From positions 31,731 through 95,730 of the forward strand of contig CANQGE010000001.1 in the NCBI GenBank assembly GCA_947601495.1: 64,000 nt of DNA. Reading direction: 5' to 3'. This stretch comes from an uncultured Clostridia bacterium. GTDB taxonomy: Bacteria > Bacillota > Clostridia > TANB77 > CAG-508. The translations under genes were made by a program, and so were the position numbers. Below the pieces are notes generated by a model. That model saw only the letters and a program-made list of their open reading frames with translations. It was not told the DNA's origin and made no database searches. Position 1 is the stretch's first letter, and the number at the start of each line of letters is the position of its first letter. Shown in pieces: positions 2,591-44,377 of this stretch.

Positions 2591-3967
2591 CTAATATCTC
2601 CTGCCATAAGGGTCTGATGGTCCCAAAACATGTAGTTCTTCTTCATCTTCTTCGTCTTTACTTTGTGGTTTTTCTGCTGGTTTTTCTGTTGGTGTTTCTT
2701 CAGGTGTTTCTTCTTTTACTTCTTCTTCAGCTTCTGATTTTTCTCTTGCTTCTATTTTGTCCATTATTTCGTCTCTTTTGCCCATATCTGTTTCAATTTC
2801 TGATCTAATTGTAGGAAGTTTTAATCCATATTTATCAAATAATTTTAATCTATCATCATTGATTTCTTGCATTTTTTCGATTTTTTCTGCTTTTGAAAGA
2901 TTTGTAACATTTTTTATTGAATCTTGTTTATTTTCTAATTCTTCTAAGTTTTGTGCCAATAATTCCTTGTCTTCTCTTCTTAAGTCTCTAGGTTCAGTAA
3001 CTAAATCTGCAACTATTTGATGCCCGTCCATATCTTTATAATATACTTTCGTACCTTTATCTTCCGCATTATCAACTACAGAAGCAGTTTTATATTCATC
3101 CATTACTTTTGTTGCATCTTCATCATATCTTCTTTCATCTATAACTCTTTCACCTTGTACAAATACTATTCTGTCATTTCCTGTTGAAATATCTCCACTA
3201 GAAAAAGCTAAACAATAAACTGGTCCACCATTATCTTGTAATCCTGCTGTATCAATTAATTGATCTGAAATGCTAGAAGGATTTCTTGCTATTAAAACAT
3301 GTTTTAAAGTTGCACCTTCTCTTTCTTTTATTTCATCTACTTTATCTTTTACATTTTCTGGTATGTTTACTTCTTCTTCCTCTTTTTCTTCTTCTGAAAG
3401 TTCTGCATCTTTTTCCTTAGTTTCTTCTTCCTTACCTTTATCTCTTTCCTCTTCTTCTCTATCTATTTCTTTTACTTGAAGATTTGGATTATTTTCTTTT
3501 ATTTTTTTAATAGTTTCTTCTTCATTTTCGGGAATTAATGTATCTTCTGCTATTTGTTTTTCCATTTCTTCTGGGGAATCTGGAAATAATGCATTTTCGA
3601 CTTCTTCTACTGATACATTTGCTTCAACTGCATATTTAAATACTTGTTTTTTCATTCGTGGAGTTAGCATAAAATTTTGTGAGTTTTCATCATCACCAAT
3701 AAAATCAACAGCCATATCTTCACCTTTGTCATTTACAGTTAATATTTGTGTTTCTCCATTTGGTAACAATATTTGAACTTTTCCAATTTTTTCTACTGTT
3801 CCGTCTCTTTTTTGAATTTCTTTTACTTCTACTAAATCAATATTAGATGGATCTATATCTCTTACCCTCATAGTTTTTTTACCATCTGATGATACATATG
3901 TATCTGCATTTTCATAAACTTTTGCAAGTAAAAATTGTCTTTGTAAATAATTATCTATATCGTTCAT
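2591..3967 (-). CDS. Hypothetical cytoplasmic protein with long acidic E/K-rich low-complexity segments
   Basis: 458-aa ORF with no TM segment and no recognisable catalytic motif. Central and C-terminal regions are strongly acidic (EEEERDKGKEEETKEKDAELSEEEKEEEE). Codon usage matches the neighbouring genes. Confidence 0.5.
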   Translation of the reverse strand: MNDIDNYLQRQFLLAKVYENADTYVSSDGKKTMRVRDIDPSNIDLVEVKEIQKRDGTVEKIGKVQILLPNGETQILTVNDKGEDMAVDFIGDDENSQNFMLTPRMKKQVFKYAVEANVSVEEVENALFPDSPEEMEKQIAEDTLIPENEEETIKKIKENNPNLQVKEIDREEEERDKGKEEETKEKDAELSEEEKEEEEVNIPENVKDKVDEIKEREGATLKHVLIARNPSSISDQLIDTAGLQDNGGPVYCLAFSSGDISTGNDRIVFVQGERVIDERRYDEDATKVMDEYKTASVVDNAEDKGTKVYYKDMDGHQIVADLVTEPRDLRREDKELLAQNLEELENKQDSIKNVTNLSKAEKIEKMQEINDDRLKLFDKYGLKLPTIRSEIETDMGKRDEIMDKIEAREKSEAEEEVKEETPEETPTEKPAEKPQSKDEEDEEELHVLGPSDPYGRRY

Positions 3968-4097: not shown

Positions 4098-4130
4098 AAA
4101 ACCTAAATTGAAAAAACATCAATTTAGGTT
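4098..4130 (-). terminator. Rho-independent terminator downstream of the Wzz-BY-kinase fusion gene
   Basis: Inverted repeat aacctaaattga...tcaatttaggtt, followed by a T-run on the minus strand. Confidence 0.5.
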
Positions 4131-4136
4131 TTATTT

Positions 4137-7100
4137 TTATAAGTTTTTATTGTATTTTGTTTTAGGATATAAATTATCACCTAATAGTTCTTCTTCTATT
4201 CTAGCTTCTTCTTTTTGCTTTTCTCTTTCTTCTTCTCTTTGCTTTCTTATTTCCTCTTGTTTTCTCATTTTTTCTTCTTTTAGTTTTTGTCTTTCAATTT
4301 TTCTTTTTTCAGCTTTTTCTTTTCTTAGTTTATTTCTTTCTTCCCTTAATTTTCTTTGTTCTTCTTGTTTTTCTTTTTTATCTATAGATAATATATTTTC
4401 CTCATCTTTTTCTATTTCATACATTCCAGAATTTTCTGTTTCTGCACTCTCAACATCAATATCGCTTTTACTATCGAATTTTTCTATAATGCTTTCATAA
4501 AATTGCCTATTTTCCATTGATTTGTTAAACTCTTCTTCAGTTTTAAATTTTGAATCAATTTCATATATTTTTGAGAAATGAATCATAGATAATTTATCTG
4601 TTATGTTTATTCTATTTGTAAGCCAAATATTATTTAACTTATATTCAAGTTCAATATTAGATTCTTTTAATTCAGCTATTCTTAATCTTTTACATCTTAA
4701 ATCATATTCTTCTGATTTTTCATCTGGAAGTCTATCATAATTTTTTGACATACAATAAGCATAAGTATCTGCTCTATTAGAAACTACTTTTTCTTTTATC
4801 CAAACAGAATCATCATAATCGCAAAGAGTTGTATAAACTAAGGTATCTATTCTTTGAGCTTGCCTTTTGGTTATACCATATAATCCCATTAAGCCTTGCA
4901 TTCTATCACGTATTAGTGAAGGAGAATAATGTTTTTTCTCAAATCCGTCGTTTTTATCTATTCCTCGTATAATTTTTTCTACAAATATTTTTTCACTAAA
5001 TACTCTACAATATCCCTCTTCTGCATCAACAAAAATTAATACTGCACCATTTTTTTTGTTTGTTTCTACATTTTTTTTATCTTTTTTATGTTCTTTTTTT
5101 AATTCTCTTCTCTCTGCTTTTGCTCTTTCTAATTCTCTTTTCTCTGTTTCTCTTCTTTCTGCCTCTTGTTTTTCTTTTTCACGTTTTTCTATTTCTCTTT
5201 TTTCTGCTTCTATTCTTTCTTGTTCTATTCTTTCATTCTTTTTTGCTTCTAATTCTTTATTGTTCTCTTTTAAAATAGTTTCATTTTTTTCTTTCTGAAT
5301 ATTTTTAAAATCATTCTTTTTATTTATTTCATTTTCATTTTGAAATTCATCAAAAGTTTCCTGACCTTCGTAAGTATCTGAATTATTTTCTTTCTCTACA
5401 TCTAAATTTTCATCTAAGCTGTCAAATGATAATTGTGTGTTTTCTTCAGTTTCAATGTTGTTTAGATATATTTTGTCAAATTCTTTTTCTTTTTTTCTTT
5501 CTTCTATTTTTTCTTTAATACCTAATCCAAAATTTACTGTACTTGTTTTTACTTTATTAAAAGAGTTACTTACTACAGCTACGGTTTTTTCTTTTAAATT
5601 TTTTAATGATTTTGCAATATTTTCAAAATAATTATTAACTTTAAAACTTGATTCTGCATTATTAACTCTATTAGAAGAATTATTTATTAAAACAATGTTG
5701 TTTACATTTGTTTTTTTAGGATTTTTATTATAAATATTATTTTTATCTACAATTTCAATTTCTGGAATTATTGTTTTTATACTATCTTCTATATTGATAA
5801 TTTTTTCTTTATTTTCATTATTAGTTTTATCGTTTAAGTTTTCTTTACTTTCTGCTTTTTGCTCTTCCTTTTTATTATCATTATCTTTTACTTCGTTTGA
5901 CTCATCTTTTTCTTCTTTTTTATCTTTATTTTTATTTTCAATTTTATTTTCTTTATCTTCTAACTTATTATTATCTAATTTTTCTACGATAACTTCTTCT
6001 TTATTTTCAGACTGCTTTTTCTGTTCTATTTTATCTATTTTTGCTGCCATAAGAAGTTTTTGTTTTTTCTCTTCTTGTTTTTCTTTCGCAAAATCTTTTA
6101 ATTTATTAATTAGATTTTTTAAATTTTCTATAATTTTAGAAACGTTTAATTTTAAAAATGAAAATACTTTAATAGAAGTTGTTTTTATGTCTTGGAAAGA
6201 TATTTTTCTTCTAAATTTAGTTTTGTTTATTATAATTCCCATTGGATTTCCACCAACATTTTGAATATCTTTCTTAGCTTTAAATAAATCCTCTTTTTTA
6301 GTTTTCTTATAGTCCGATACTATTATTGTTGAATTAACAGCTCTAGTTAAAATTAAAGAATTCATATTGTTTAACACAGAAGTTCCATCTATTAAAACTA
6401 AATCATAAAAAACACTTAAGTCTTTTATTAATTCTTGTAATCTTTCAGAAGTAAGCAATTCTGTTGAATTTGGTGGTACTGTTCCTGAAGTAATCAAATT
6501 TAAATTTTTTATTCCTGTTTCATTTATAAAATTGTTTGTAAGTTTTTTTATTTCCATTCCATTAGAATCTAAACTTGATAAGTAATTAGAAAATCCAAGA
6601 TTGTTTGGTATGTTAAATATTTTATTTTGTCTACCATTTTGCATATCTGAATCTATTATTATTACTTTTTTTCCACTTTCTGCAAAAATTACACCAAGAT
6701 TAGCTGTAATGTAACTTTTTCCTTCACCATCTAAAGGACTTGTTATAAGTATTATGTTTTTCTCTTTATTATTAACGTTTATAAATTGAATATTAGTTCT
6801 AAGATTTCTAAATGCTTTTAAAGTTATTGATTTGCTTCCTGAAGTAGTTGATATTAATTCATTTTTAATTTTATTTGATTTATTTTTTTTGCAATTTATT
6901 AAAGGAATTTCAATTAATTTTTTTAAATTTATTTCATTATCGATGTTCTCATTAATTTTAATATTTCTGTCTATAATCGCTACAGCAAAAATATAACCAG
7001 AGCTTACTAAAATACCAATTATAAGAGAAATAAACGCACATAATATTATTGAAATATTTGTTGTAACTTTATTTATATGAGGACTATCAACTATATATAT

Positions 7101-7544
7101 TTCTCTATTTTCATACATTTCATCTAGTTTATCTGAAAGAATATCTATCAATTTTTGGTTTTCTTTTATTGAATTATTTTCATCAGTATTTTTTACTTGA
7201 ATTTGAAATGTATCTGAATTTGAATTTATTTTTATATCTATGCCTTTTCTTAGTTCTTTATTGCTTAAATTCAAATTTAAATCATCTTTTATTTTTTGAA
7301 TAGAGGAATCACTTTTTAATAGTTCTTTAAAAGTATGTATAAGTTTGGAAGTAATTTCTATGTTTTCTCTACTTTCGCTTTGTCCATTTTCAGTTACTTC
7401 TGATTTTATTAATAAAGCTTTTGATACTGAAATATATTCTTTTTTACTTAAGCATAGAGAAAGAACTATACCAATAATTAGTATAGATATTACAATTAAT
7501 ATTACATGTATTTTCTTTTCTTTTAATTTTTCCAAAAATATCAT
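4137..7544 (-). CDS. Fusion of Wzz-type chain-length modulator and BY-kinase-like P-loop ATPase, with a long K/E-rich coiled-coil and an unknown C-terminal domain
   Basis: The N-terminus has TM1 (HVILIVISILIIGIVLSL), a roughly 140-aa extracytoplasmic segment and TM2 (ISIILCAFISLIIGILV), which is Wzz/Cps2C-like. A CpsD/YwqD-like ATPase follows, with Walker A TSPLDGEGKS, A' VIIIDSDMQNG and Walker B DLVLIDGTS. About 300 aa of K/E/N-rich repeats come next (EKREIEKREKEKQEAERRE...). The C-terminus is a roughly 250-aa unrecognised globular region (GAVLIFVDAEEGYCRV...) with a final KE-rich tail. RBS AGAGGAAAAAA lies upstream. No C-terminal tyrosine cluster is present. Confidence 0.7.
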   Translation of the reverse strand: MIFLEKLKEKKIHVILIVISILIIGIVLSLCLSKKEYISVSKALLIKSEVTENGQSESRENIEITSKLIHTFKELLKSDSSIQKIKDDLNLNLSNKELRKGIDIKINSNSDTFQIQVKNTDENNSIKENQKLIDILSDKLDEMYENREIYIVDSPHINKVTTNISIILCAFISLIIGILVSSGYIFAVAIIDRNIKINENIDNEINLKKLIEIPLINCKKNKSNKIKNELISTTSGSKSITLKAFRNLRTNIQFINVNNKEKNIILITSPLDGEGKSYITANLGVIFAESGKKVIIIDSDMQNGRQNKIFNIPNNLGFSNYLSSLDSNGMEIKKLTNNFINETGIKNLNLITSGTVPPNSTELLTSERLQELIKDLSVFYDLVLIDGTSVLNNMNSLILTRAVNSTIIVSDYKKTKKEDLFKAKKDIQNVGGNPMGIIINKTKFRRKISFQDIKTTSIKVFSFLKLNVSKIIENLKNLINKLKDFAKEKQEEKKQKLLMAAKIDKIEQKKQSENKEEVIVEKLDNNKLEDKENKIENKNKDKKEEKDESNEVKDNDNKKEEQKAESKENLNDKTNNENKEKIINIEDSIKTIIPEIEIVDKNNIYNKNPKKTNVNNIVLINNSSNRVNNAESSFKVNNYFENIAKSLKNLKEKTVAVVSNSFNKVKTSTVNFGLGIKEKIEERKKEKEFDKIYLNNIETEENTQLSFDSLDENLDVEKENNSDTYEGQETFDEFQNENEINKKNDFKNIQKEKNETILKENNKELEAKKNERIEQERIEAEKREIEKREKEKQEAERRETEKRELERAKAERRELKKEHKKDKKNVETNKKNGAVLIFVDAEEGYCRVFSEKIFVEKIIRGIDKNDGFEKKHYSPSLIRDRMQGLMGLYGITKRQAQRIDTLVYTTLCDYDDSVWIKEKVVSNRADTYAYCMSKNYDRLPDEKSEEYDLRCKRLRIAELKESNIELEYKLNNIWLTNRINITDKLSMIHFSKIYEIDSKFKTEEEFNKSMENRQFYESIIEKFDSKSDIDVESAETENSGMYEIEKDEENILSIDKKEKQEEQRKLREERNKLRKEKAEKRKIERQKLKEEKMRKQEEIRKQREEEREKQKEEARIEEELLGDNLYPKTKYNKNL

Positions 7545-7787
7545 TTTTTTCCTCTCTTATCTACTAAATAAAAAATAAAAGACGCAAATAAAAATTATTC
7601 ACATCTTTTGTATGGTATTTTCTTATAAAATTCTTAATCATTATAGCAAACTTTCTTTAAAAATTCAATACTTTTAAAGTATTTATTTAAAAATTTTTAT
7701 GCTAATTTTGACATCTTATTTTTTAAAGTTTACTATTTTTATAGATTACTATTTAAACTCTGTTTTAAAACAATTGGAACGCCAAAA

Positions 7788-7834: not shown

Positions 7835-8263
7835 TTAAACATTATAATCTGATACTTTCTTATAAGCATATAATGCTGAAGCAACAAGTGCAATTGTTAC
7901 AAATACCATAGATGATCCATTTCCTGCATATGGTAATGAAGAACTTACTTTATTTGTGTTTGAATTTGTTGAATTAGTATTACTAGAAGTATTAGTGTTT
8001 GTGTTGTTTACTGTATTATTAGCACTTGGTGAACCAACTGTTGCTGGAATAAGTGTTCCGTTTGTGTTTGAATTTGTGTTCTCATCTGTAGCTTCATTAT
8101 TAACTGCTCCTGCTTCTTCGTTTGTTGAAGTTGTATTTGTATCTGCAACTAATTGTTGACCTTCTGTAGCAGAAACTAATGAACTTATACTAGCAAATGT
8201 GAAAGTTATTAATACGATAAGTACTAAACTTACTAAAAATTTTTCTTTTCTTAATTTAACCAT
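7835..8263 (-). CDS. Small S/T/N-rich surface protein with an LPxxG-type C-terminal sorting signal
   Basis: N-terminal signal peptide (FLVSLVLIVLITFTFASISSLVSA) and a low-complexity T/N/S-rich mature region. The C-terminus has the tripartite sorting signal LPYAGNG, a hydrophobic helix (MVFVTIALVASALYAY) and a basic tail (KK). Confidence 0.55.
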   Translation of the reverse strand: MVKLRKEKFLVSLVLIVLITFTFASISSLVSATEGQQLVADTNTTSTNEEAGAVNNEATDENTNSNTNGTLIPATVGSPSANNTVNNTNTNTSSNTNSTNSNTNKVSSSLPYAGNGSSMVFVTIALVASALYAYKKVSDYNV

Positions 8264-13167: not shown

Positions 13168-15204
13168 TTATTTTAATTTAGTTACAATTTTTAGAATTTC
13201 AGAATCGCTCCAAGCCTGTGAGAAAGTTCCACCAGGGTTAAAAGGTAATTCTGCATCATATACTTCTGAAAGAGTTCCAACTCCTTGAGAATTATTTATT
13301 TCCACTTTAAAAGTATTGTAAACTTTTTCTATAAATTTTTCGTATTCTATTTTTAATTTTTCTTTTTCTAATCTATCTTTTTCAAATTCTATTATATTCT
13401 TAAAGCTATCATTATATAGTCCTAAAAGCCAAATCCAAATTGTTCCTTGATGATATGCTGAATCTCTTTCAAAAACATTTCCTTCATAATGTGGAATATA
13501 TCCTTCCTCATCTTTTGCAAGGGTTTTTAATCCATACTTAGTAAGCAATTTACTTGTTACTGTTTTAAATATTGTTTTTCCAATTTCAGAAGAAGGTTTT
13601 ATAACTGGATATGTTGTTGATATTGCAAATAATTGATTTGGTCTAATTTTTTCATCTCCAATAACATCATATAAAGACTTTTTCTTTTTATTATAAAATT
13701 GTTTTTCAAATTCTTTCTGATGCTCTACTGCTGTTTTTTTATAAATGTCAGCTAGTTCTTTTTCATCAAATCTTTTTGCTAAATTTTCCAAAGTTTTTAA
13801 TGCATTATAGTAAAGTGCATTTAATTCAACAACTTTACCATTTCTAGGTGTAACTGCTTTGTTTCCAATTTTAACATCCATCCATGTATTTTGGGTGTCT
13901 GGAGTTCCAGAGCATAAAAGTCCATCATTTGCAATATAGATGTTGTTATTATCTTGATTAATTCCTGATTGATAATATTTAATTATTTCTTTTAACTTTT
14001 CATATATATTATTTTTTATGAAATCATAATCTTTTGTATATTGTAAAAATTTATTTACTTGCTCAAATAGTAATAGTGATGCATCTGCACTATTATATAG
14101 AGGTCTATTATCAAAACCAGAGTAACCGTTTGGAACTAGTCCAAATTTAACATCTCTAGTAAAAGTTAATAATATTTCTTTTGCTAAATCATATCTTTTA
14201 GTTATTAAAAATGCTCCTTCAAAGGCAATTAATGAATCTCTTCCCCAATCTAAAAACCATGGAAATCCTGCTATAATTGAATGTGTTCCAAATGAAGGTC
14301 TATTTATAACAAAGCTATCTAAGGCAATTACAAGGTCTTTTACTAATTCGTTGTAGTCTTTCTCTTTTTTAGTTAATTTGCTTTTTTCTTTTAATAGTTT
14401 TGTGTTATTTACAACAGTTTCAATTCTTTTTATTTCATTTTGTATTACTTTATTTGCATCAACTTGTTCTGTATTATCTTCTAATGAAGCTACGAAAGTT
14501 ATTTCTTTAGTTTCACGAGGTTTAATTTTTATTTCATATCTACCAGGAATAATTAAATTTTCTTTTGGGAAAAATCCTCTTTCTTCCTCTTTTATATAAA
14601 ACATATCTCTAAATACATCATTATAATGTTTTATGTATTCGCCTTCATTAGAAAAAATATAAAGAGGGAAGCTTGCATTTCCATCTATTTCTAATCTAAC
14701 TTTATTATTATCATTTTTTTGTTTTAACTCAAATTCGTGGTTTGTAGTCATTTGATGGAAGTCTCTAAAATTAACAATAGGCGTTAATTTCAAAAGAGAC
14801 TCTTTTTTTCCATTTTTTATTTTATATTGTACGACTACTGTATTTCTTCCATATATCATTGATATAGTTTTCACTATTTTTACATCTTCAATTTTATAAG
14901 TGAAAACAGGCAAAAATTCTTTTTCAAATGATTCTAAATTTTTATATCCTTCTGAAATATAGTTTTCACATACATTTGTAAATAAGTTGTACTCATCTCG
15001 ATCAATTAATATGCTTTCATCAAGTTTTGAAAGTAATAAATGCCTTTGTGCTGGTGGATTTAAAGGTGCTACTAGTAGTCCATGATATCTTCTAGTATTT
15101 GCTCCAATAACTGTTGATGAAGCAAAACCTCCTATTCCATTTGTTATAATCCATTCTTTATTTAAAGCATTTTTTAAATCGATTTGTTTTTTTAATAGTT
15201 TCAT
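13168..15204 (-). CDS. Amylo-alpha-1,6-glucosidase-type glycogen debranching enzyme (GDE_N + GDE_C family)
   Basis: The N-terminal signature TNGIGGFASSTVIGANTRRYHGLL is typical of archaeal/bacterial GDE-family enzymes. The 678-aa length is appropriate. Confidence 0.75.
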   Translation of the reverse strand: MKLLKKQIDLKNALNKEWIITNGIGGFASSTVIGANTRRYHGLLVAPLNPPAQRHLLLSKLDESILIDRDEYNLFTNVCENYISEGYKNLESFEKEFLPVFTYKIEDVKIVKTISMIYGRNTVVVQYKIKNGKKESLLKLTPIVNFRDFHQMTTNHEFELKQKNDNNKVRLEIDGNASFPLYIFSNEGEYIKHYNDVFRDMFYIKEEERGFFPKENLIIPGRYEIKIKPRETKEITFVASLEDNTEQVDANKVIQNEIKRIETVVNNTKLLKEKSKLTKKEKDYNELVKDLVIALDSFVINRPSFGTHSIIAGFPWFLDWGRDSLIAFEGAFLITKRYDLAKEILLTFTRDVKFGLVPNGYSGFDNRPLYNSADASLLLFEQVNKFLQYTKDYDFIKNNIYEKLKEIIKYYQSGINQDNNNIYIANDGLLCSGTPDTQNTWMDVKIGNKAVTPRNGKVVELNALYYNALKTLENLAKRFDEKELADIYKKTAVEHQKEFEKQFYNKKKKSLYDVIGDEKIRPNQLFAISTTYPVIKPSSEIGKTIFKTVTSKLLTKYGLKTLAKDEEGYIPHYEGNVFERDSAYHQGTIWIWLLGLYNDSFKNIIEFEKDRLEKEKLKIEYEKFIEKVYNTFKVEINNSQGVGTLSEVYDAELPFNPGGTFSQAWSDSEILKIVTKLK

Positions 15205-26037: not shown

Positions 26038-27621
26038 TTAATTTGATGTATTTGAATTTGAAACTTTATTAGTTGTATTTTCAGTATTTGTAGAAGAATT
26101 TTTGTCAGTAGTTGTATTTGAAACTTTATTTTCATTAGAAGTTGTTTCACTTTCAGTATCGCTATTTTTTTCTTCATTCTCTTCTTTTTCATCTATGTTT
26201 ATAAGATTTTGTTCTTCTAAGAAATCTCTTAAAGGTCTTGCCTGTCCATCATGTTCCATATAATATGTTGTTTCTCCTGATTTTGTAATTGCATATATTT
26301 TAGTGCAAACACAAGGTAATACTATTCTTTCCTCAGTTATATCATATATTCCATATAGTTCATCTTTCTTTATAACAATTCCTTTTATTCCAACAGATGG
26401 TGGTATAAGAAGAACATTTTCTTCATGTCCTGATGTAGTTTCTTTTGAACCAGTTTTATATCCTAAATCATCTATTGTAATTGATAATATTAAATCTCCT
26501 TCTGTATTACATAATCCATATAAATCATCTTTTTGAACAGGTATAACTTCTCCAAAAAGTAATGATGAATTTTCAATATCGTCTAGTTCAAATTCAGAAG
26601 TATCAAAACCTATTGCATCATTTTCTGCATGAATAAGAGTTTTTCCATTTCTATTTACAACTCCAAATTCTCCATCTTTTTCTACTAAATAAAGTTGTTT
26701 TTCATCATCTAGCAAAGAAATATTTTCAAATTCTGACGGAGCAATTACTGTTCCACCATCTGAGTTTAATATTCCCATTGTTCCATTTGATGCAGTTACA
26801 TAAAATTCTTTTACATTTTGAACAAATTTTATATCATTATATTTTACACCTATTACTTCTCTGCCATTTTCGCTTAAAGAAATTACGCCATATAAATTAT
26901 CTTTTGAACCTTCTGTACCTTTTGAAACTATAACAAAATCATACAAAATTGATTTTAAGTTTTCATAATATCCACTTATTTGTGTATATCCAAGTTGAGC
27001 AATAGAAGATTTTGCTTGTTTAACTATATAATCTAAAGTATAAAATCTATATCTATATGGTTTCCAATCAATTCTTAAATTAAGCATTTCTGCAGCATCT
27101 TCTTTTGAAACATATATTTTTCCATCAATAAATTTTAAAGGATTTATTAAATCAAAGTTTTCGCAATAACCACTTTTATTTTTTGTAGTTACAACTATAT
27201 CTGCGATAGTAATTTTTTGACTAGTTGAAACCGTTGAAATATATTTTTGATATTTATTTTCATTAACTGACATTGCAACTATTTCAAAATCATTTTGTAA
27301 ATAGCAACTATCAGCATTTTCATTATATTTATTATATTCACCTTGATTATATGTATAGTTTAATAGAGTGGCTAATTCATTAGCATTTAAATATACTGTT
27401 CCTTCAATTTCTTTATAGAAATCATCTGGAAAGCTTTGTTGCTGATTATTATCTATAAATACTTTGTCTGTAACTGAATCTTGATATTGTAAAAGTAGAA
27501 TCATTGCAACAAGTCCTACTATTAAAAGTGCACATAATACTATAGAAAGCATAACTCCTTTTCTGTTTCTAGTATTTTTTTCCATTTTTTCTCTGTACAA
27601 ATCGCTTTCTTCTAAGTTCAT
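26038..27621 (-). CDS. Membrane-anchored WG-repeat (KWG-like) protein with a C-terminal S/T/N-rich tail
   Basis: N-terminal TM (VMLSIVLCALLIVGLVAMILLL). There are at least five repeats of the LYG(V/L/I)x...G pattern (LYGVISLSENGREVIG; MGILNSDGGTVIAP; EFGVVNRNGKTLI; LYGLCNTEGDLIL; LYGIYDITEERIVL). The C-terminus is TSNENKVSNTTTDKNSSTNTENTTN. Confidence 0.5.
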   Translation of the reverse strand: MNLEESDLYREKMEKNTRNRKGVMLSIVLCALLIVGLVAMILLLQYQDSVTDKVFIDNNQQQSFPDDFYKEIEGTVYLNANELATLLNYTYNQGEYNKYNENADSCYLQNDFEIVAMSVNENKYQKYISTVSTSQKITIADIVVTTKNKSGYCENFDLINPLKFIDGKIYVSKEDAAEMLNLRIDWKPYRYRFYTLDYIVKQAKSSIAQLGYTQISGYYENLKSILYDFVIVSKGTEGSKDNLYGVISLSENGREVIGVKYNDIKFVQNVKEFYVTASNGTMGILNSDGGTVIAPSEFENISLLDDEKQLYLVEKDGEFGVVNRNGKTLIHAENDAIGFDTSEFELDDIENSSLLFGEVIPVQKDDLYGLCNTEGDLILSITIDDLGYKTGSKETTSGHEENVLLIPPSVGIKGIVIKKDELYGIYDITEERIVLPCVCTKIYAITKSGETTYYMEHDGQARPLRDFLEEQNLINIDEKEENEEKNSDTESETTSNENKVSNTTTDKNSSTNTENTTNKVSNSNTSN

Positions 27622-40175: not shown

Positions 40176-41765
40176 TTAATAATAAACCATATAATCAATT
40201 TCTGGGAATATATCATCTTTGTTAAATATATCTAATAAATATTTTGGGTCTATTTTATCATTTTTTATTTGATAATATAGCTTCGTAAATCTTCCTATAT
40301 GGTCTTTAATTGCTTTATGTGCATATTCTACCATTGTTCCATTTGTAATTATAAATAGCCAGTCACTACTTTGTGCAAGTAAAAGTTCTCTTGCACATTG
40401 ATTTAATGCTTGTCTTCTTAATGTATCTCCTTCATTTGGGAACATGCTTGCAAGTTCACACATTCTATCTCCAGCTTTATGTAAGTGTCTATGTGCATAG
40501 TCATTTGTTTGATTTAGCCAAACTTCACTATAGCCATTTGCTCCCCAACTTGATCTACAAGGTGTAGAAACTTGCATTTCAGGATACATATCTATATATT
40601 CACTAGGTGTAATTAATTTAAAATTACATTCATCATAATAGATTTTTTTAAATAATATATAAAGCCAATATGGTCCCTCATACCACCAATGTCCATAAAG
40701 CTCTGCATCATATGGACAAGTAATAATTGGTGGAACGTCCATATAGCTTGCTAAATGGTCTATTTGAGCAGTTCTGCAATCCATAAAATGTCCTGCTTGC
40801 TTTTCAGCAGAATCTTTTGCCCATTGAATATCATAATAATCTTTATTATCTGTTTTTCCAGTAATTCTATAATATTTTATACCTGTGTTTACTCTTGCAC
40901 CATTACTTGCTATATATGGTTTTATATAGTCATAATCTGTATCATAGCCAATATCTCTATAGAATTCTCTATAGTTGAAATCGCCTGGATATCCAGAAAT
41001 TGAACTCCAAACCTGTCTTGATGATTCTAAATCTCTTGCAAATGCTACTAATCCACCATGAGAAACTATTGGTGCATAAGTTCCATAAATTGGAGTTGGA
41101 TCTGCATATAAAACTCCGTGTGTTTCAACTATTGCATATTCTATTCCAAATTCTTTAAGATACTTATCTGCTTCTGGAACATATCCACATTCTGGAAGCC
41201 AAATTCCTCTAGGATTTCTTCCAAAGAATTTTTTATATGTTTGAACACCAACTGCAATTTGTGCTCTAACAGTTTTTTCATTTACATATAAAATTGGAAA
41301 ATATCCATGAGTTGCTCCACAAGTGATAATTTCCAATACTCCAATGTCTTGAAAATGTTTAAATCCAGAAATTAAATTACAATCATAAACATCTTGAAAT
41401 ACATGTAAATCATTTGTGTATCTATCTAAATAGTAATGTGATAAGTTGTTTAATCTTTTATCGTAAACTGTTCTTTTAACTTCTTTTTCACATAATTCTA
41501 TATGTTTATTTAAATATTTAATATATCTTTCTTTTAAAAGTTTATTATCTAACATATTTAAAAGCGGTGGAGTCATTGTCATTGTGATTCTAAAATCTAC
41601 ATGTTCTTCTTCTAATTTTTTAAAATTTAGTAAAAGTGGTATATATGTTTCAGATATTGCTTCAAAAAGCCATTCTTCTTCTAAGTAGCCTTCACTTTCT
41701 GGATGATGAATATATGGCAAATGAGCATGTAAAACAAAATTGACATATCCTTTAATATTTTTCAT
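40176..41765 (-). CDS. GH57 family 1,4-alpha-glucan branching enzyme
   Basis: N-terminal YVNFVLHAHLPYIHHPE is the GH57 signature. A catalytic Glu/Asp region follows, and the 529-aa length matches GH57 branching enzymes. Confidence 0.8.
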   Translation of the reverse strand: MKNIKGYVNFVLHAHLPYIHHPESEGYLEEEWLFEAISETYIPLLLNFKKLEEEHVDFRITMTMTPPLLNMLDNKLLKERYIKYLNKHIELCEKEVKRTVYDKRLNNLSHYYLDRYTNDLHVFQDVYDCNLISGFKHFQDIGVLEIITCGATHGYFPILYVNEKTVRAQIAVGVQTYKKFFGRNPRGIWLPECGYVPEADKYLKEFGIEYAIVETHGVLYADPTPIYGTYAPIVSHGGLVAFARDLESSRQVWSSISGYPGDFNYREFYRDIGYDTDYDYIKPYIASNGARVNTGIKYYRITGKTDNKDYYDIQWAKDSAEKQAGHFMDCRTAQIDHLASYMDVPPIITCPYDAELYGHWWYEGPYWLYILFKKIYYDECNFKLITPSEYIDMYPEMQVSTPCRSSWGANGYSEVWLNQTNDYAHRHLHKAGDRMCELASMFPNEGDTLRRQALNQCARELLLAQSSDWLFIITNGTMVEYAHKAIKDHIGRFTKLYYQIKNDKIDPKYLLDIFNKDDIFPEIDYMVYY

Positions 41766-43090: not shown

Positions 43091-44377
43091 ATGAAAATTT
43101 TAATGCTATCATGGGAATATCCACCAAGAGTTGTTGGAGGTATATCAAGAGTGGTTTATGACTTATCACACAAATTATGTATGCAAGGTCATAAAGTTAC
43201 CGTTATTACTTATAAAGATGGTAATGTACCATATTTTGAAGATGATGATGGTGTTGATGTTTACAGAGTAGATAATTTTATGATTGCTCCTAATAATTTT
43301 ATAGATTGGGTTATGCAACTTAATTTCAATATGATAGCAAAAGCTGGAGAAATTATTGCACAACAAGGAAACTTTGATGTTATACATGCTCATGATTGGC
43401 TTACTGCTTATGCTGGAAAAACATTAAAATTTGCATATAATACTCCTCTTGTAGCTACTATACATGCTACTGAAGCTGGTAGAAATAGCGGTATTAGAGG
43501 TGATATGCAAAAATATATTAATGATACTGAATGGATGCTTACTTATGAATCTTCAGAAGTTATCGTTAATAGTAATTATATGAAAAACGAATTACAAAGA
43601 CTTTTTGGTCTTCCTTATGAGAAAATAAATGTAGTACCTAATGGTGTTGATCTTACTTTATTTAATGGAATTGATAGAGACTATGAATTTAGAAGAAGAT
43701 TTGCCATGGATAATGAAAAAATTATTCTATTCATGGGTAGATTAGTTTATGAAAAAGGTATTCAAACACTTATTTCTGCTATGCCTAAAATCTTAGACAA
43801 TTATCATGATGCAAAATTAGTTATCGCAGGAAAAGGCGGAATGATTAATGAATTAAGAAATCAAGTTAATTTCCTTGGATTAGGAAATAAAGTTTATTTC
43901 ACAGGACACTTAGCTTCTAAAGATGTTCAAAAAATGTACAAGTGTGCTGATGTTGCTGTATTCCCTAGTACATATGAACCTTTTGGAATTGTAGCTATTG
44001 AAGCTATGCTTTCTGGAACACCAGTAGTTACTTCTGATGTTGGTGGATTAAATGAAATTGTAGAACATGGAGTAAATGGAATGAAAAGTTATGCTGGAAA
44101 TCCAAACTCTCTTGCAGATTCTATTCTTGCATTATTATTTAATCCAGAATTATGCAACACAGTTTCAAAAAATGCAAAAGAAAAAGTTAAAGCTCAATAT
44201 AATTGGACTAAAATTACAGAAGAAACTCACTTCACTTATGAAACAGCTATTTGTGAAACTATTGCAGAAAGACAAAAGAAACAAATTGCTCAAGAAGAAG
44301 CTCGTAATCAAATTAAAAAATCTAAAGAAGTTACAAACCTACTTTCATTCAAGAAAACTCACGAGGCATTTGCATAA
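43091..44377 (+). CDS. GT4 family glycosyltransferase (glycogen/alpha-glucan synthase-like)
   Basis: MKILMLSWEYPPRVVGGISRVVYDL N-terminus and the GT-B C-terminal domain with E...E (FPSTYEPFGIVAIEAM). RBS AAAGGAG. The promoter TTGACA lies about 45 bp upstream. Confidence 0.8.
   Translation: MKILMLSWEYPPRVVGGISRVVYDLSHKLCMQGHKVTVITYKDGNVPYFEDDDGVDVYRVDNFMIAPNNFIDWVMQLNFNMIAKAGEIIAQQGNFDVIHAHDWLTAYAGKTLKFAYNTPLVATIHATEAGRNSGIRGDMQKYINDTEWMLTYESSEVIVNSNYMKNELQRLFGLPYEKINVVPNGVDLTLFNGIDRDYEFRRRFAMDNEKIILFMGRLVYEKGIQTLISAMPKILDNYHDAKLVIAGKGGMINELRNQVNFLGLGNKVYFTGHLASKDVQKMYKCADVAVFPSTYEPFGIVAIEAMLSGTPVVTSDVGGLNEIVEHGVNGMKSYAGNPNSLADSILALLFNPELCNTVSKNAKEKVKAQYNWTKITEETHFTYETAICETIAERQKKQIAQEEARNQIKKSKEVTNLLSFKKTHEAFA

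Follow-up and report, generated by a model that had tools for sequence, protein, structure and literature searches.

The locus and its long-tailed gene

We analysed a stretch of 64,000 nucleotides on contig CANQGE010000001.1 of an uncultured Clostridia bacterium (referred to here as the window), and in particular one gene on its minus strand that encodes a protein of 1135 amino acids (aa). The front of this protein resembles the Wzz-type membrane modulators and bacterial tyrosine kinases (BY-kinases) of capsule loci, and the remainder is a long charged tail with an accessory domain and a highly conserved terminal peptide. The gene belongs to a family that has no tyrosine cluster next to the kinase core and carries a single invariant tyrosine close to the C-terminus. 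Its features are as follows.

4137..7544, minus: complete open reading frame (ORF), 1135 aa plus stop, long-tailed Wzz/BY-kinase-like protein; syntenic orthologues of 1138 and 1104 aa
6903..7544, minus: CpsC/Wzz-type membrane module, like polysaccharide co-polymerases of class 2b (PCP-2b), aa 1-214; TIGR01006 5.5e-17; Pfam Wzz 0.0095, below cut-off
7449-7511, minus: first transmembrane segment (TM1), aa 12-32, from hydropathy
7059-7448, minus: extracellular loop of ~130 aa, between TM1 and TM2
6975-7058, minus: second transmembrane segment (TM2), aa 163-190, from hydropathy
6189..6839, minus: BY-kinase-type P-loop domain, aa 236-452, from TIGR01007 and PDB matches
6714-6737, minus: Walker A motif PLDGEGKS, aa 270-277
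6645-6653, minus: DxD motif IIIDSDMQ, D298 and D300
6378-6401, minus: Walker B motif LVLIDGTS, aa 382-389
6051..6065, minus: short KQKLL motif, conserved, aa 494-498, closing an amphipathic helix ~45 aa past the kinase core
5055..6014, minus: variable K/E/N/D-rich low-complexity linker, aa 511-830; identity 0.09-0.25 with many gaps; periodic repeats of 15/30/45 nt
5070-5258, minus: ER/K-type helix, aa 763-825, with dense i/i+4 opposite-charge pairs
4521..5054, minus: accessory alpha/beta domain predicted by AlphaFold2 (AF2), aa 831-1008, no known fold match
4191..4382, minus: second ER/K-type charged helix, aa 1055-1118, with dense i/i+4 opposite-charge pairs
4140..4214, minus: terminal peptide that defines the family, KEEARIEEELLGDNLYPKTKYNKNL, aa 1111-1135; no variation at N, Y and P, L kept in at least 90%
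4167-4169, minus: invariant Tyr1126, 10 residues from the C-terminus
4190-4340, 5071-5266, 5481-5516 and 5902-5951: imperfect tandem repeats within the gene, T/C-rich on the plus strand

The first-pass annotation had described a single uninterrupted frame with Wzz topology and an ATPase domain, and this description holds: the frame is intact, two hydrophobic segments flank the ~130-aa loop, and the Walker A, A' (DxD) and B motifs that it named are all present. The NCBIfam model TIGR01007, 'polysaccharide biosynthesis tyrosine autokinase', matches aa 244-445 (4.6e-43, 147.1 bits against a cut-off of 108.05), and TIGR01006 (CpsC family) matches aa 4-214 with 62 bits, under its cut-off of 296. 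Pfam returned only the generic AAA_31/CbiA families and a sub-threshold Wzz match (16.7 bits; cut-off 25.5). Among PDB sequences, aa 189-450 match the S. aureus CapA1/CapB1 chimera 4jlv best (1.8e-38), together with 3bfv and 2ved (1e-32 to 1e-38); BceF, Etk and Wzc rank after the CapA/CapB chimeras, and the CapB, Etk, Wzc and BceF chains as a whole span 1e-24 to 1e-38. Residues 189-225 align with the C-terminal juxtamembrane activator fragment of CapA (PDB 4jlv/3bfv), with I216 at the position of the penultimate Phe of that fragment; in BY-kinases the juxtamembrane helix of the activator completes the ATP site. Thus, aa 1-452 are a two-TM co-polymerase-like anchor fused to a P-loop domain of the BY-kinase fold. 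Within the P-loop, G273-E-G-K276-S277 aligns to G-A-G-K55-S56 of CapB, and the EX2RX2R position of canonical kinases reads K243-AF-R246-NL-R249; Asp386 of the Walker B region is present and the prolines of the DTPP motif are absent. In the clade, the Walker A Gly and Lys are 98-100% conserved, and K276, D300 (89%), D386 (100%) and N440 are retained (53 members). Judged from these alignments, the P-loop domain keeps the residues expected to bind nucleotide and to act in catalysis, i.e. K276, S277, D298, D300, D386 and N440.

The gene's plus strand is T/C-rich and of low complexity in the K/E regions, with imperfect repeats of 12-45 nt, and plus-strand ORFs of 80-156 aa overlap the gene, in line with the earlier description of low-complexity DNA that spawns spurious antisense frames. 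A repeat-rich middle part of this kind is prone to misassembly, and several database entries are truncated in it (P0059, P0060), so we considered whether the 1135-aa frame might be a spurious ORF in such DNA, or might join two or more genes through a mistake in sequencing or assembly. The chance of this is negligible. More than 20 independent assemblies, produced by different studies, contain uninterrupted full-length orthologues (950-1140 aa). Conservation in one reading frame extends from the N-terminal domains to the C-terminal domain and the tail, and a promoter and leader lie only upstream of the gene and a terminator only downstream. The recurrence of the full-length frame in so many assemblies shows that the gene is real, and the comparative data rule out the fusion artefact that the first-pass annotation had named as a concern, the architecture recurring in more than 20 independent contigs. 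The exact 1135-aa protein has no identical entry on record.

A conserved family defined by its C-terminal peptide

The gene had been called an orphan, which does not hold in the sense of unique: an exhaustive phmmer search with the accessory domain found a conserved family of 49 representative clusters at 50% identity, mostly 950-1090 aa long and with the domain at the same relative position. A word-indexed search with the same domain returned nothing, as the word index misses the family. Every full-length member inspected consists of a Wzz-like module, a kinase-like domain, a linker, the accessory domain and a K/E tail. The sequences come from metagenome-assembled genomes (MAGs) only, of low-GC (guanine plus cytosine) gut Clostridia, and the few named entries read 'polysaccharide biosynthesis tyrosine autokinase [Clostridia bacterium]' or 'capsular exopolysaccharide synthesis family protein'. 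Two orthologues are present among the GTDB species representatives, both from rabbit-gut 'uncultured Clostridia' MAGs; these proteins of 1138 and 1104 aa have full-length identities of 89% and 66%, and best tblastn segments of 88% and 55%. There is no rRNA in the 64-kb window. A search with the N-terminal 460 aa extended the family to a wider clade, which contains proteins of 710-800 aa with the Wzz-kinase front, a K/E-rich spacer and a terminal peptide of the NLYP type.

Alignment of 18 full-length members showed conserved blocks in the membrane module (moderate), the kinase core, KQKLL, aa 835-985 and the last 25 residues, KEEARIEEELLGDNLYPKTKYNKNL. The last of these is the most conserved segment of the whole protein and had been overlooked before. 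The tail consensus is EEELLxDNLYP[KR], in which N, Y and P are invariant; an alignment of 30 C-terminal regions shows NLYPKTK without change and EEELL with almost none. The shorter relatives end in EELLEDNLYPKTK..., EELQEDNLYP[KR]xx[MI] or DDNIYPRPRM, and the tail is thus common to three architectural types, whether the accessory domain is present or absent. Its Tyr falls within the last 5-13 residues, as in the tyrosine clusters (Y-clusters) of canonical kinases. Within the window and 33 loci, the NLYP tail was found only on the long-tailed gene, and a search of the word-indexed database with a profile of the final 44 residues returned only fragments of 31-60 aa. The tail is predicted to be disordered in the AF2 monomer model, as would be expected of a peptide that binds in trans. 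The terminal peptide, probably unstructured, sits at the end of a long tether of variable sequence.

A defining feature of BY-kinases is a flexible Tyr cluster, which the subunits of an octameric ring phosphorylate in trans. The long-tailed protein has no Tyr from aa 441 to 604, and none of the 53 clade members has a kinase-proximal cluster, so that the absence reported by the first-pass annotation extends to the whole clade. We compared 53 NLYP-tail proteins and the query column by column with 53 Y-cluster kinases and CapB. The two endings are mutually exclusive: the proximal cluster is found in 0 of 53 tail proteins, and all 53 cluster proteins are without the tail, which fits a functional replacement of the Y-cluster. 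The isBYK filter of BYKdb requires a C-terminal Tyr cluster directly past the catalytic core (PMC3245071, PMC2422856, PMC9800525).

Both groups keep G275, K276, D300 (equivalent to CapB D79), D386, N440 (adenine contact), E362 and the GxxPPN loop. They part at three places. The E23 position of EX2RX2R is Glu in 100% of 54 canonical sequences and K or another residue in the clade, where Glu is never the majority; P160 of DTPP is conserved in 89% of canonical kinases and is mostly Ser in the clade; and the cluster tyrosines are kept by the canonical group only. In CapB, D79 is the proposed catalytic base, EX2RX2R is the oligomerisation motif, and the DTPP prolines sandwich the substrate Tyr (PMC2422856). 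The clade-wide loss of residues for ring formation and Tyr binding (E23, P160) fits the earlier suggestion of a repurposed Wzc-like ATPase. A loss of tyrosine-kinase function does not follow from it, since a single invariant Tyr, Tyr1126, is kept near the C-terminus.

The same pattern could be explained by a nucleotide-dependent scaffold or adaptor, i.e. a pseudo-kinase whose P-loop domain controls membrane oligomerisation only, with NLYP and KQKLL recruiting a conserved partner in the cytoplasm (such as a protein of cell division, chromosome partition or envelope synthesis) and the ER/K helices acting as rigid spacers. That E23, P160 and the Y-cluster were lost together while the nucleotide-binding residues stayed argues for it, as does the rigid peptide context of the tail, which is typical of recognition motifs. 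BY-kinases are moreover related to MinD/ParA, and CpsD is known to couple to cell division (PMC4574921). However, D300 and the whole Mg/phosphate network, unneeded in a pure scaffold, are kept, a Tyr close to the C-terminus supplies the invariant side chain of the tail, and no other protein of the window and the 33 loci carries the tail motif. We consider a non-catalytic scaffold rather unlikely, and it is the main rival to the interpretation given below.

The spacer and the accessory domain

Each clade member carries a charged and variable spacer of 250-650 aa between the kinase core and the terminal peptide. In the query, hydrophobic residues fill a fraction of only 0.12-0.5 of the a/d positions in most of aa 500-830 and 1043-1120, and a heptad coiled-coil was rejected for the K/E region on this ground. 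The ~300-aa K/E coiled-coil of the first-pass annotation is mostly a variable low-complexity linker, which looks disordered, with ER/K-type single helices instead; for the second charged helix, AF2 predicts a single long helix (model residues 220-296). The KQKLL motif has at least 90% identity across the 18 full-length members, and the shorter relatives have a comparable K-L-L motif.

The domain at aa 831-1008 was predicted by AF2 from a 32-sequence alignment with a predicted local distance difference test score of 95.4 and a predicted template modelling score of 0.90. The predicted fold comprises an antiparallel sheet at the N-terminus, five helices and a sixth strand. It was said to be unrecognisable, and this stands: it has no match in PDB40, its best Foldseek match in BFVD has E = 0.4 only, and profile searches of PDB sequences, Pfam, PADLOC and PHROGs were empty. 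PADLOC and PHROGs also gave no defence or phage link for the domain or the neighbouring genes. The residues D900, D911, Y928, E942, R950 and Y968 are invariant, which suggests a defined binding or active site. By hmmsearch the domain is absent from the 710-800-aa short forms, some of which occupy the same syntenic slot (L032), indicating that it is an accessory insertion in the spacer. From this comparison, the core of the family is the Wzz module, the kinase-like ATPase, the charged spacer and the NLYP tail, with the accessory domain outside the core of the innovation. A spacer of variable length and a dispensable accessory domain also speak for the scaffold explanation set out above.

Distant stand-alone versions of the accessory domain (21-27% identity) were found in P0046 (L008) and P0047 (L009 1963-2949), small proteins encoded on short contigs. 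One of the stand-alone proteins adjoins LysM/PG-binding and SprT-like genes and may be carried by a phage or mobile element. P0035, whose C-terminus resembles RecJ, looks like a chimera.

A stand-alone transcription unit outside polysaccharide loci

The signals around the gene and the other features of the window to which we refer are these.

7640..7668, minus: sigma-A-like promoter, TTGAAT, 17-nt spacer, TG-extended TATAAT; 10/12 matches, TG present
7566..7609, minus: conserved 5' leader element, terminator-shaped, between promoter and ribosome-binding site
7577-7609, minus: 15-bp leader hairpin with A-tract on its 5' side; the U-run then follows at 7566-7576
4098..4132: terminator-like hairpin directly past the stop codon
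7789-7806: terminator-like hairpin of the upstream 142-aa gene
7835..8263, minus: upstream 142-aa protein with signal peptide, N/T/S-rich region, LPYAG, TM segment and tail YAYKKVSDYNV
2591..3967, minus: downstream acidic 458-aa protein, 26% D+E, no family match
958-2559: metG
13168-15204, 40176-41765 and 43091-44377: glycogen-metabolism genes

The gene is a stand-alone transcription unit, away from polysaccharide genes; for BY-kinases, a place in a polysaccharide locus with a cognate phosphatase is usual but not obligatory. A promoter scan alone gives no enrichment over shuffles in the AT-rich DNA of the window, and the promoter is kept at the same distance in the orthologues, distant short forms included. 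A sporulation-associated role had been proposed; it has no specific support and the promoter looks sigma-A-like, and a sporulation-specific role was rejected.

The leader of the orthologues consists of an A-tract, a hairpin of 14-19 bp and a U-run, with the consensus UACAAAAGAUGCAAAUAA-loop-UUAUUUGUGUCUUUUUU. Its fold has a z-score of -3.75, and 95% of cells across 15 leaders are paired versus 48-68% with slid partners. The hairpin occurs once per locus, always just upstream of the long-tailed gene (for example L001 9933-9969, L004 9910-9947, L006 9934-9976, L015 5019-5057, L022 5012-5048 and L032 1283-1318), and nowhere else in the window. Rfam has no match to it, with either the gathering or the E-value threshold applied. 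The hairpin could be an attenuator specific to this gene family, or a site where a protein binds.

The neighbours are those given by the first-pass annotation: metG, the acidic 458-aa protein and a small LPxxG surface protein. The conserved order is (GDE, ATP-grasp, rny, sigH), ychF, small LPYAG protein, long-tailed gene, acidic protein, (metG), tmk, as seen in the two GTDB loci, further ENA/Logan loci and 20 loci from a JGI/ENA metagenome scan. The acidic protein adjoins the long-tailed gene throughout the family and evolves fast, with 19-21% identity between distant orthologues. The 142-aa protein has a hypervariable N/T/S-rich ectodomain, and its C-terminus, LPYAG-(4 aa)-TM-YAYKKV[ST]DYN[VIL], is almost invariant in 16 loci. 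Sortase sorting signals normally end in a few basic residues, and the sortase substrates at the canonical loci described below end in ARKKLANA or KKRAVNA, compared to the three-Tyr tail of the LPYAG protein. A conserved Tyr-rich cytoplasmic tail is atypical for a sorting signal and makes the LPYAG protein a candidate partner or substrate of the kinase-like protein, which is the weakest part of our inference.

Two further observations concern the window at large. A two-gene non-ribosomal peptide synthetase (C-A-T-C, then A-T-reductase; 1328 and 1153 aa) lies at 52224-59661 on the minus strand and adjoins a 7TM histidine kinase pair and an HD-GYP-type response regulator; in a reduced genome of low GC content, it would be a small peptide synthetase that releases an aldehyde or alcohol. 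Two proteins of ~530-545 aa, at 26038-27621 of the window (minus) and at L001 17253-18887, have a weak WG_beta_rep match only, and one such protein has a conserved place in the syntenic block, immediately downstream of tmk.

The long-tailed gene could also encode an ordinary polysaccharide co-polymerase/BY-kinase that acts in trans with a distant locus for exopolysaccharide (EPS), capsule or a secondary cell-wall polymer, with the tail as decoration. The TIGR01007 score above its curated cut-off, the name 'polysaccharide biosynthesis tyrosine autokinase' given by NCBI and the intact CpsC-like two-TM module with an extracellular loop are in favour, and canonical kinases of the lineage too carry charged extensions of ~100 aa (P0100, P0109). 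However, scanning all ORFs of at least 100 aa in the window and 10 kb beyond its other side in the orthologous loci, we found no wzx, wzy, priming glycosyltransferase, CpsB or low-molecular-weight protein tyrosine phosphatase within 56 kb on one side and 10 kb on the other. The earlier statement that no polysaccharide genes are adjacent therefore extends to the absence of any EPS locus in this range. The glycosyl-enzyme matches of the window are scattered glycogen genes, i.e. a GDE-type debranching enzyme, a GH57 branching enzyme and a GT5/GT4 glycogen synthase, and the long-tailed family lies outside polysaccharide loci in every context examined. The gene has its own promoter, leader and terminators, and the Y-cluster is missing from 53 of 53 members.

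Further evidence against an ordinary co-polymerase comes from related genomes, which have a separate canonical set of Wzz, kinase and CpsB inside an EPS locus. In L034 (rabbit-gut MAG, GC 0.26), Wzz (239 aa), a kinase (308 aa) and the CpsB phosphatase belong to a full EPS locus with a Polysacc_synt-family (Wzx-type) flippase, UDP-glucose dehydrogenase, rml genes and glycosyltransferases; this kinase is the nearest canonical relative, with a domain 47% identical to ours and a YYYY cluster. L035 has the identical order of Wzz, kinase and CpsB, and a genome with a short-form NLYP gene (type 3) has a separate 545-aa Wzz-kinase that adjoins a GT4 gene. The nearest tail-less proteins, P0100-P0118, are ordinary kinases of ~310-370 aa with 45-53% core identity and a YYYG cluster right after the core. 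As canonical Wzz-kinase systems lie at EPS or glycosyltransferase genes in related genomes, the long-tailed gene is an extra paralogue and not the EPS kinase. We regard a trans-acting EPS co-polymerase as improbable, less likely than the scaffold.

The fusion of modulator and kinase, which had been presented as an oddity, is not the novelty. Fused Wzz-kinases with Y-clusters exist among close relatives (P0095, P0109 and the 545-aa gene in L010), and BYKdb lists 281 fused (P-type) BY-kinases in Bacillota (PMC9800525).

Two observations on the canonical systems of the lineage may be added. The charged extension of ~100 aa past the Y-cluster of P0100-P0118 has a conserved end, ...NQINQYLDEEKKKLK, and C-terminal extensions of BY-kinases may be a lineage trait that predates the NLYP family. 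In L034 (7264-11723) and L035 (1138-5791), a sortase substrate (LAYTG or LANTG), a sortase and a multi-TM protein of 275-286 aa directly precede the canonical trio, and sortase genes are recurrently linked to BY-kinase systems in this lineage.

A possible tail-docking switch

Among the explanations considered we favour, tentatively and at somewhat less than an even chance, that the product is a paralogue of the capsule-type tyrosine kinase system (CpsC/CpsD, CapA/CapB, Wzc), specific to the lineage and with a tail-docking switch included. The protein would form a membrane-anchored ring of ATPase domains, as CapAB and Wzc do, and the tethered C-terminal peptide would dock on the P-loop domain of its own or a neighbouring subunit. 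Tyr1126 could be a relocated phospho-acceptor; alternatively, the peptide could be an ATPase regulator of the ParB/MinE type. Engagement and release of the tail, dependent on ATP, would flip the long arms between tucked and extended states, and the arms and the accessory domain may pass the switch on to whatever the long-tailed protein holds together below the membrane. The process in which it acts probably concerns the envelope or surface, with the adjacent LPYAG protein and its invariant Tyr-rich cytoplasmic tail as a candidate partner or substrate, and expression would probably be gated by attenuation at the leader hairpin. A narrower version is a membrane switch derived from a BY-kinase, with EDNLYP[KR] as acceptor or regulatory peptide on an ER/K spacer, an attenuator-type leader and the LPYAG tail as substrate or docking site. 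We think this unlikely to be right in all its parts; if it is, the family would be a tyrosine-phosphorylation module for surface-protein display or envelope assembly, and not for polysaccharide chain length.

Several observations weigh against a paralogue with a docking tail. The octamer-interface and Tyr-pocket residues of CapB are not conserved (E23 to K243, R81/K82 to Q302/N303, P159-P160 to T388-S389), so the canonical ring and Tyr docking geometry cannot be assumed, although close relatives that bear a Y-cluster also have DGT[SP] (P0109, P0100). The lone Tyr in its rigid N-L-Y-P-K/R context looks more like a specific recognition peptide than a loose Y-cluster. The conserved neighbours may only reflect the general synteny of one bacterial family: housekeeping neighbours are 75-90% identical, as in a narrow lineage, and adjacency alone is therefore weak evidence of a functional link. 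Covariation in the leader is weak, with double changes in one pair only and not distinguishable from shuffles, because the sequence is nearly invariant.

The fold and the ancestry of the protein are already known, and any novelty would lie in the combination of features; searches of a full-text paper library gave no description of a cluster-less core with an ER/K tether, NLYP terminus, optional orphan-fold domain and leader hairpin. The family is a natural experiment in which the core was kept, the cluster deleted and a lone invariant Tyr moved to the end of a tether of 250-650 residues, and in which the gene was taken out of the EPS operon while the canonical system persists in related genomes. 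If the tail is the acceptor, this would be a one-site, geometrically defined BY-kinase, ideal for the model of ring assembly and disassembly; if not, it would be an example of the BY-kinase fold recycled as a scaffold. In either case the family adds a confidently predicted domain without a structural relative (PDB40, BFVD) and a conserved leader RNA element specific to the gene family. Its current annotation as a plain 'polysaccharide biosynthesis tyrosine autokinase' is probably misleading.

Comparison with known systems

The best match is to S. aureus CapA/CapB and S. pneumoniae CpsC/CpsD (F-type with PCP-2b), the CapA activator helix included. The long-tailed protein shares with them the two-TM anchor with a short extracellular loop, as well as the Walker A Lys/Ser, DxD, the Walker B Asp and the adenine-binding Asn. 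In contrast to these systems, it has modulator and kinase in one chain, no Y-cluster past the core and a 680-aa C-terminal extension with a conserved terminal peptide, and its gene lies outside a cps/cap operon with no adjacent CpsB/CapC phosphatase. Compared to CapA/CapB, it has K for E in EX2RX2R, DGTS for DTPP and Q/N for R81/K82.

E. coli Wzc/Etk (P-type, PCP-2a) likewise combine a TM anchor and a cytoplasmic kinase domain in one polypeptide. NF008568 matches aa 149-452 (1.9e-33; 115 bits against an equivalog cut-off of 1068), PDB entries 7nhr and 3la6 match as well, and the octameric ring of Wzc is the model for the mechanism proposed here. Unlike the long-tailed protein, Wzc has a periplasmic domain of ~400 aa with a GNVR motif, an RK-cluster and a terminal Y-cluster, and it is encoded in capsule or colanic-acid operons with Wza and Wzb.

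With the canonical BY-kinases of its own lineage (P0100-P0118; L034, L035), the long-tailed family shares the DGT[SP] Walker B, the NYLSxxD loop, charged C-terminal extensions and an origin in low-GC gut Clostridia (GC 0.26). Those kinases, unlike the long-tailed family, are split from Wzz, have YYYG with CpsB next to them in full EPS loci, and have no NLYP tail.

Finally, the P-loop fold class is shared with the MinD/ParA SIMIBI ATPases (MinD matches of 1e-10 to 1e-5, far below cut-offs), and the idea of a short, basic and conserved peptide that would engage the ATPase is borrowed from MinE and the N-terminal peptide of ParB, a resemblance that we infer only. Unlike MinD/ParA, the long-tailed protein has SPLDGEGKS without the signature lysine of the deviant Walker A motif (KGGxxK[ST]), it is anchored by two TM segments and not by an amphipathic helix, and its putative regulator peptide is tethered in cis.

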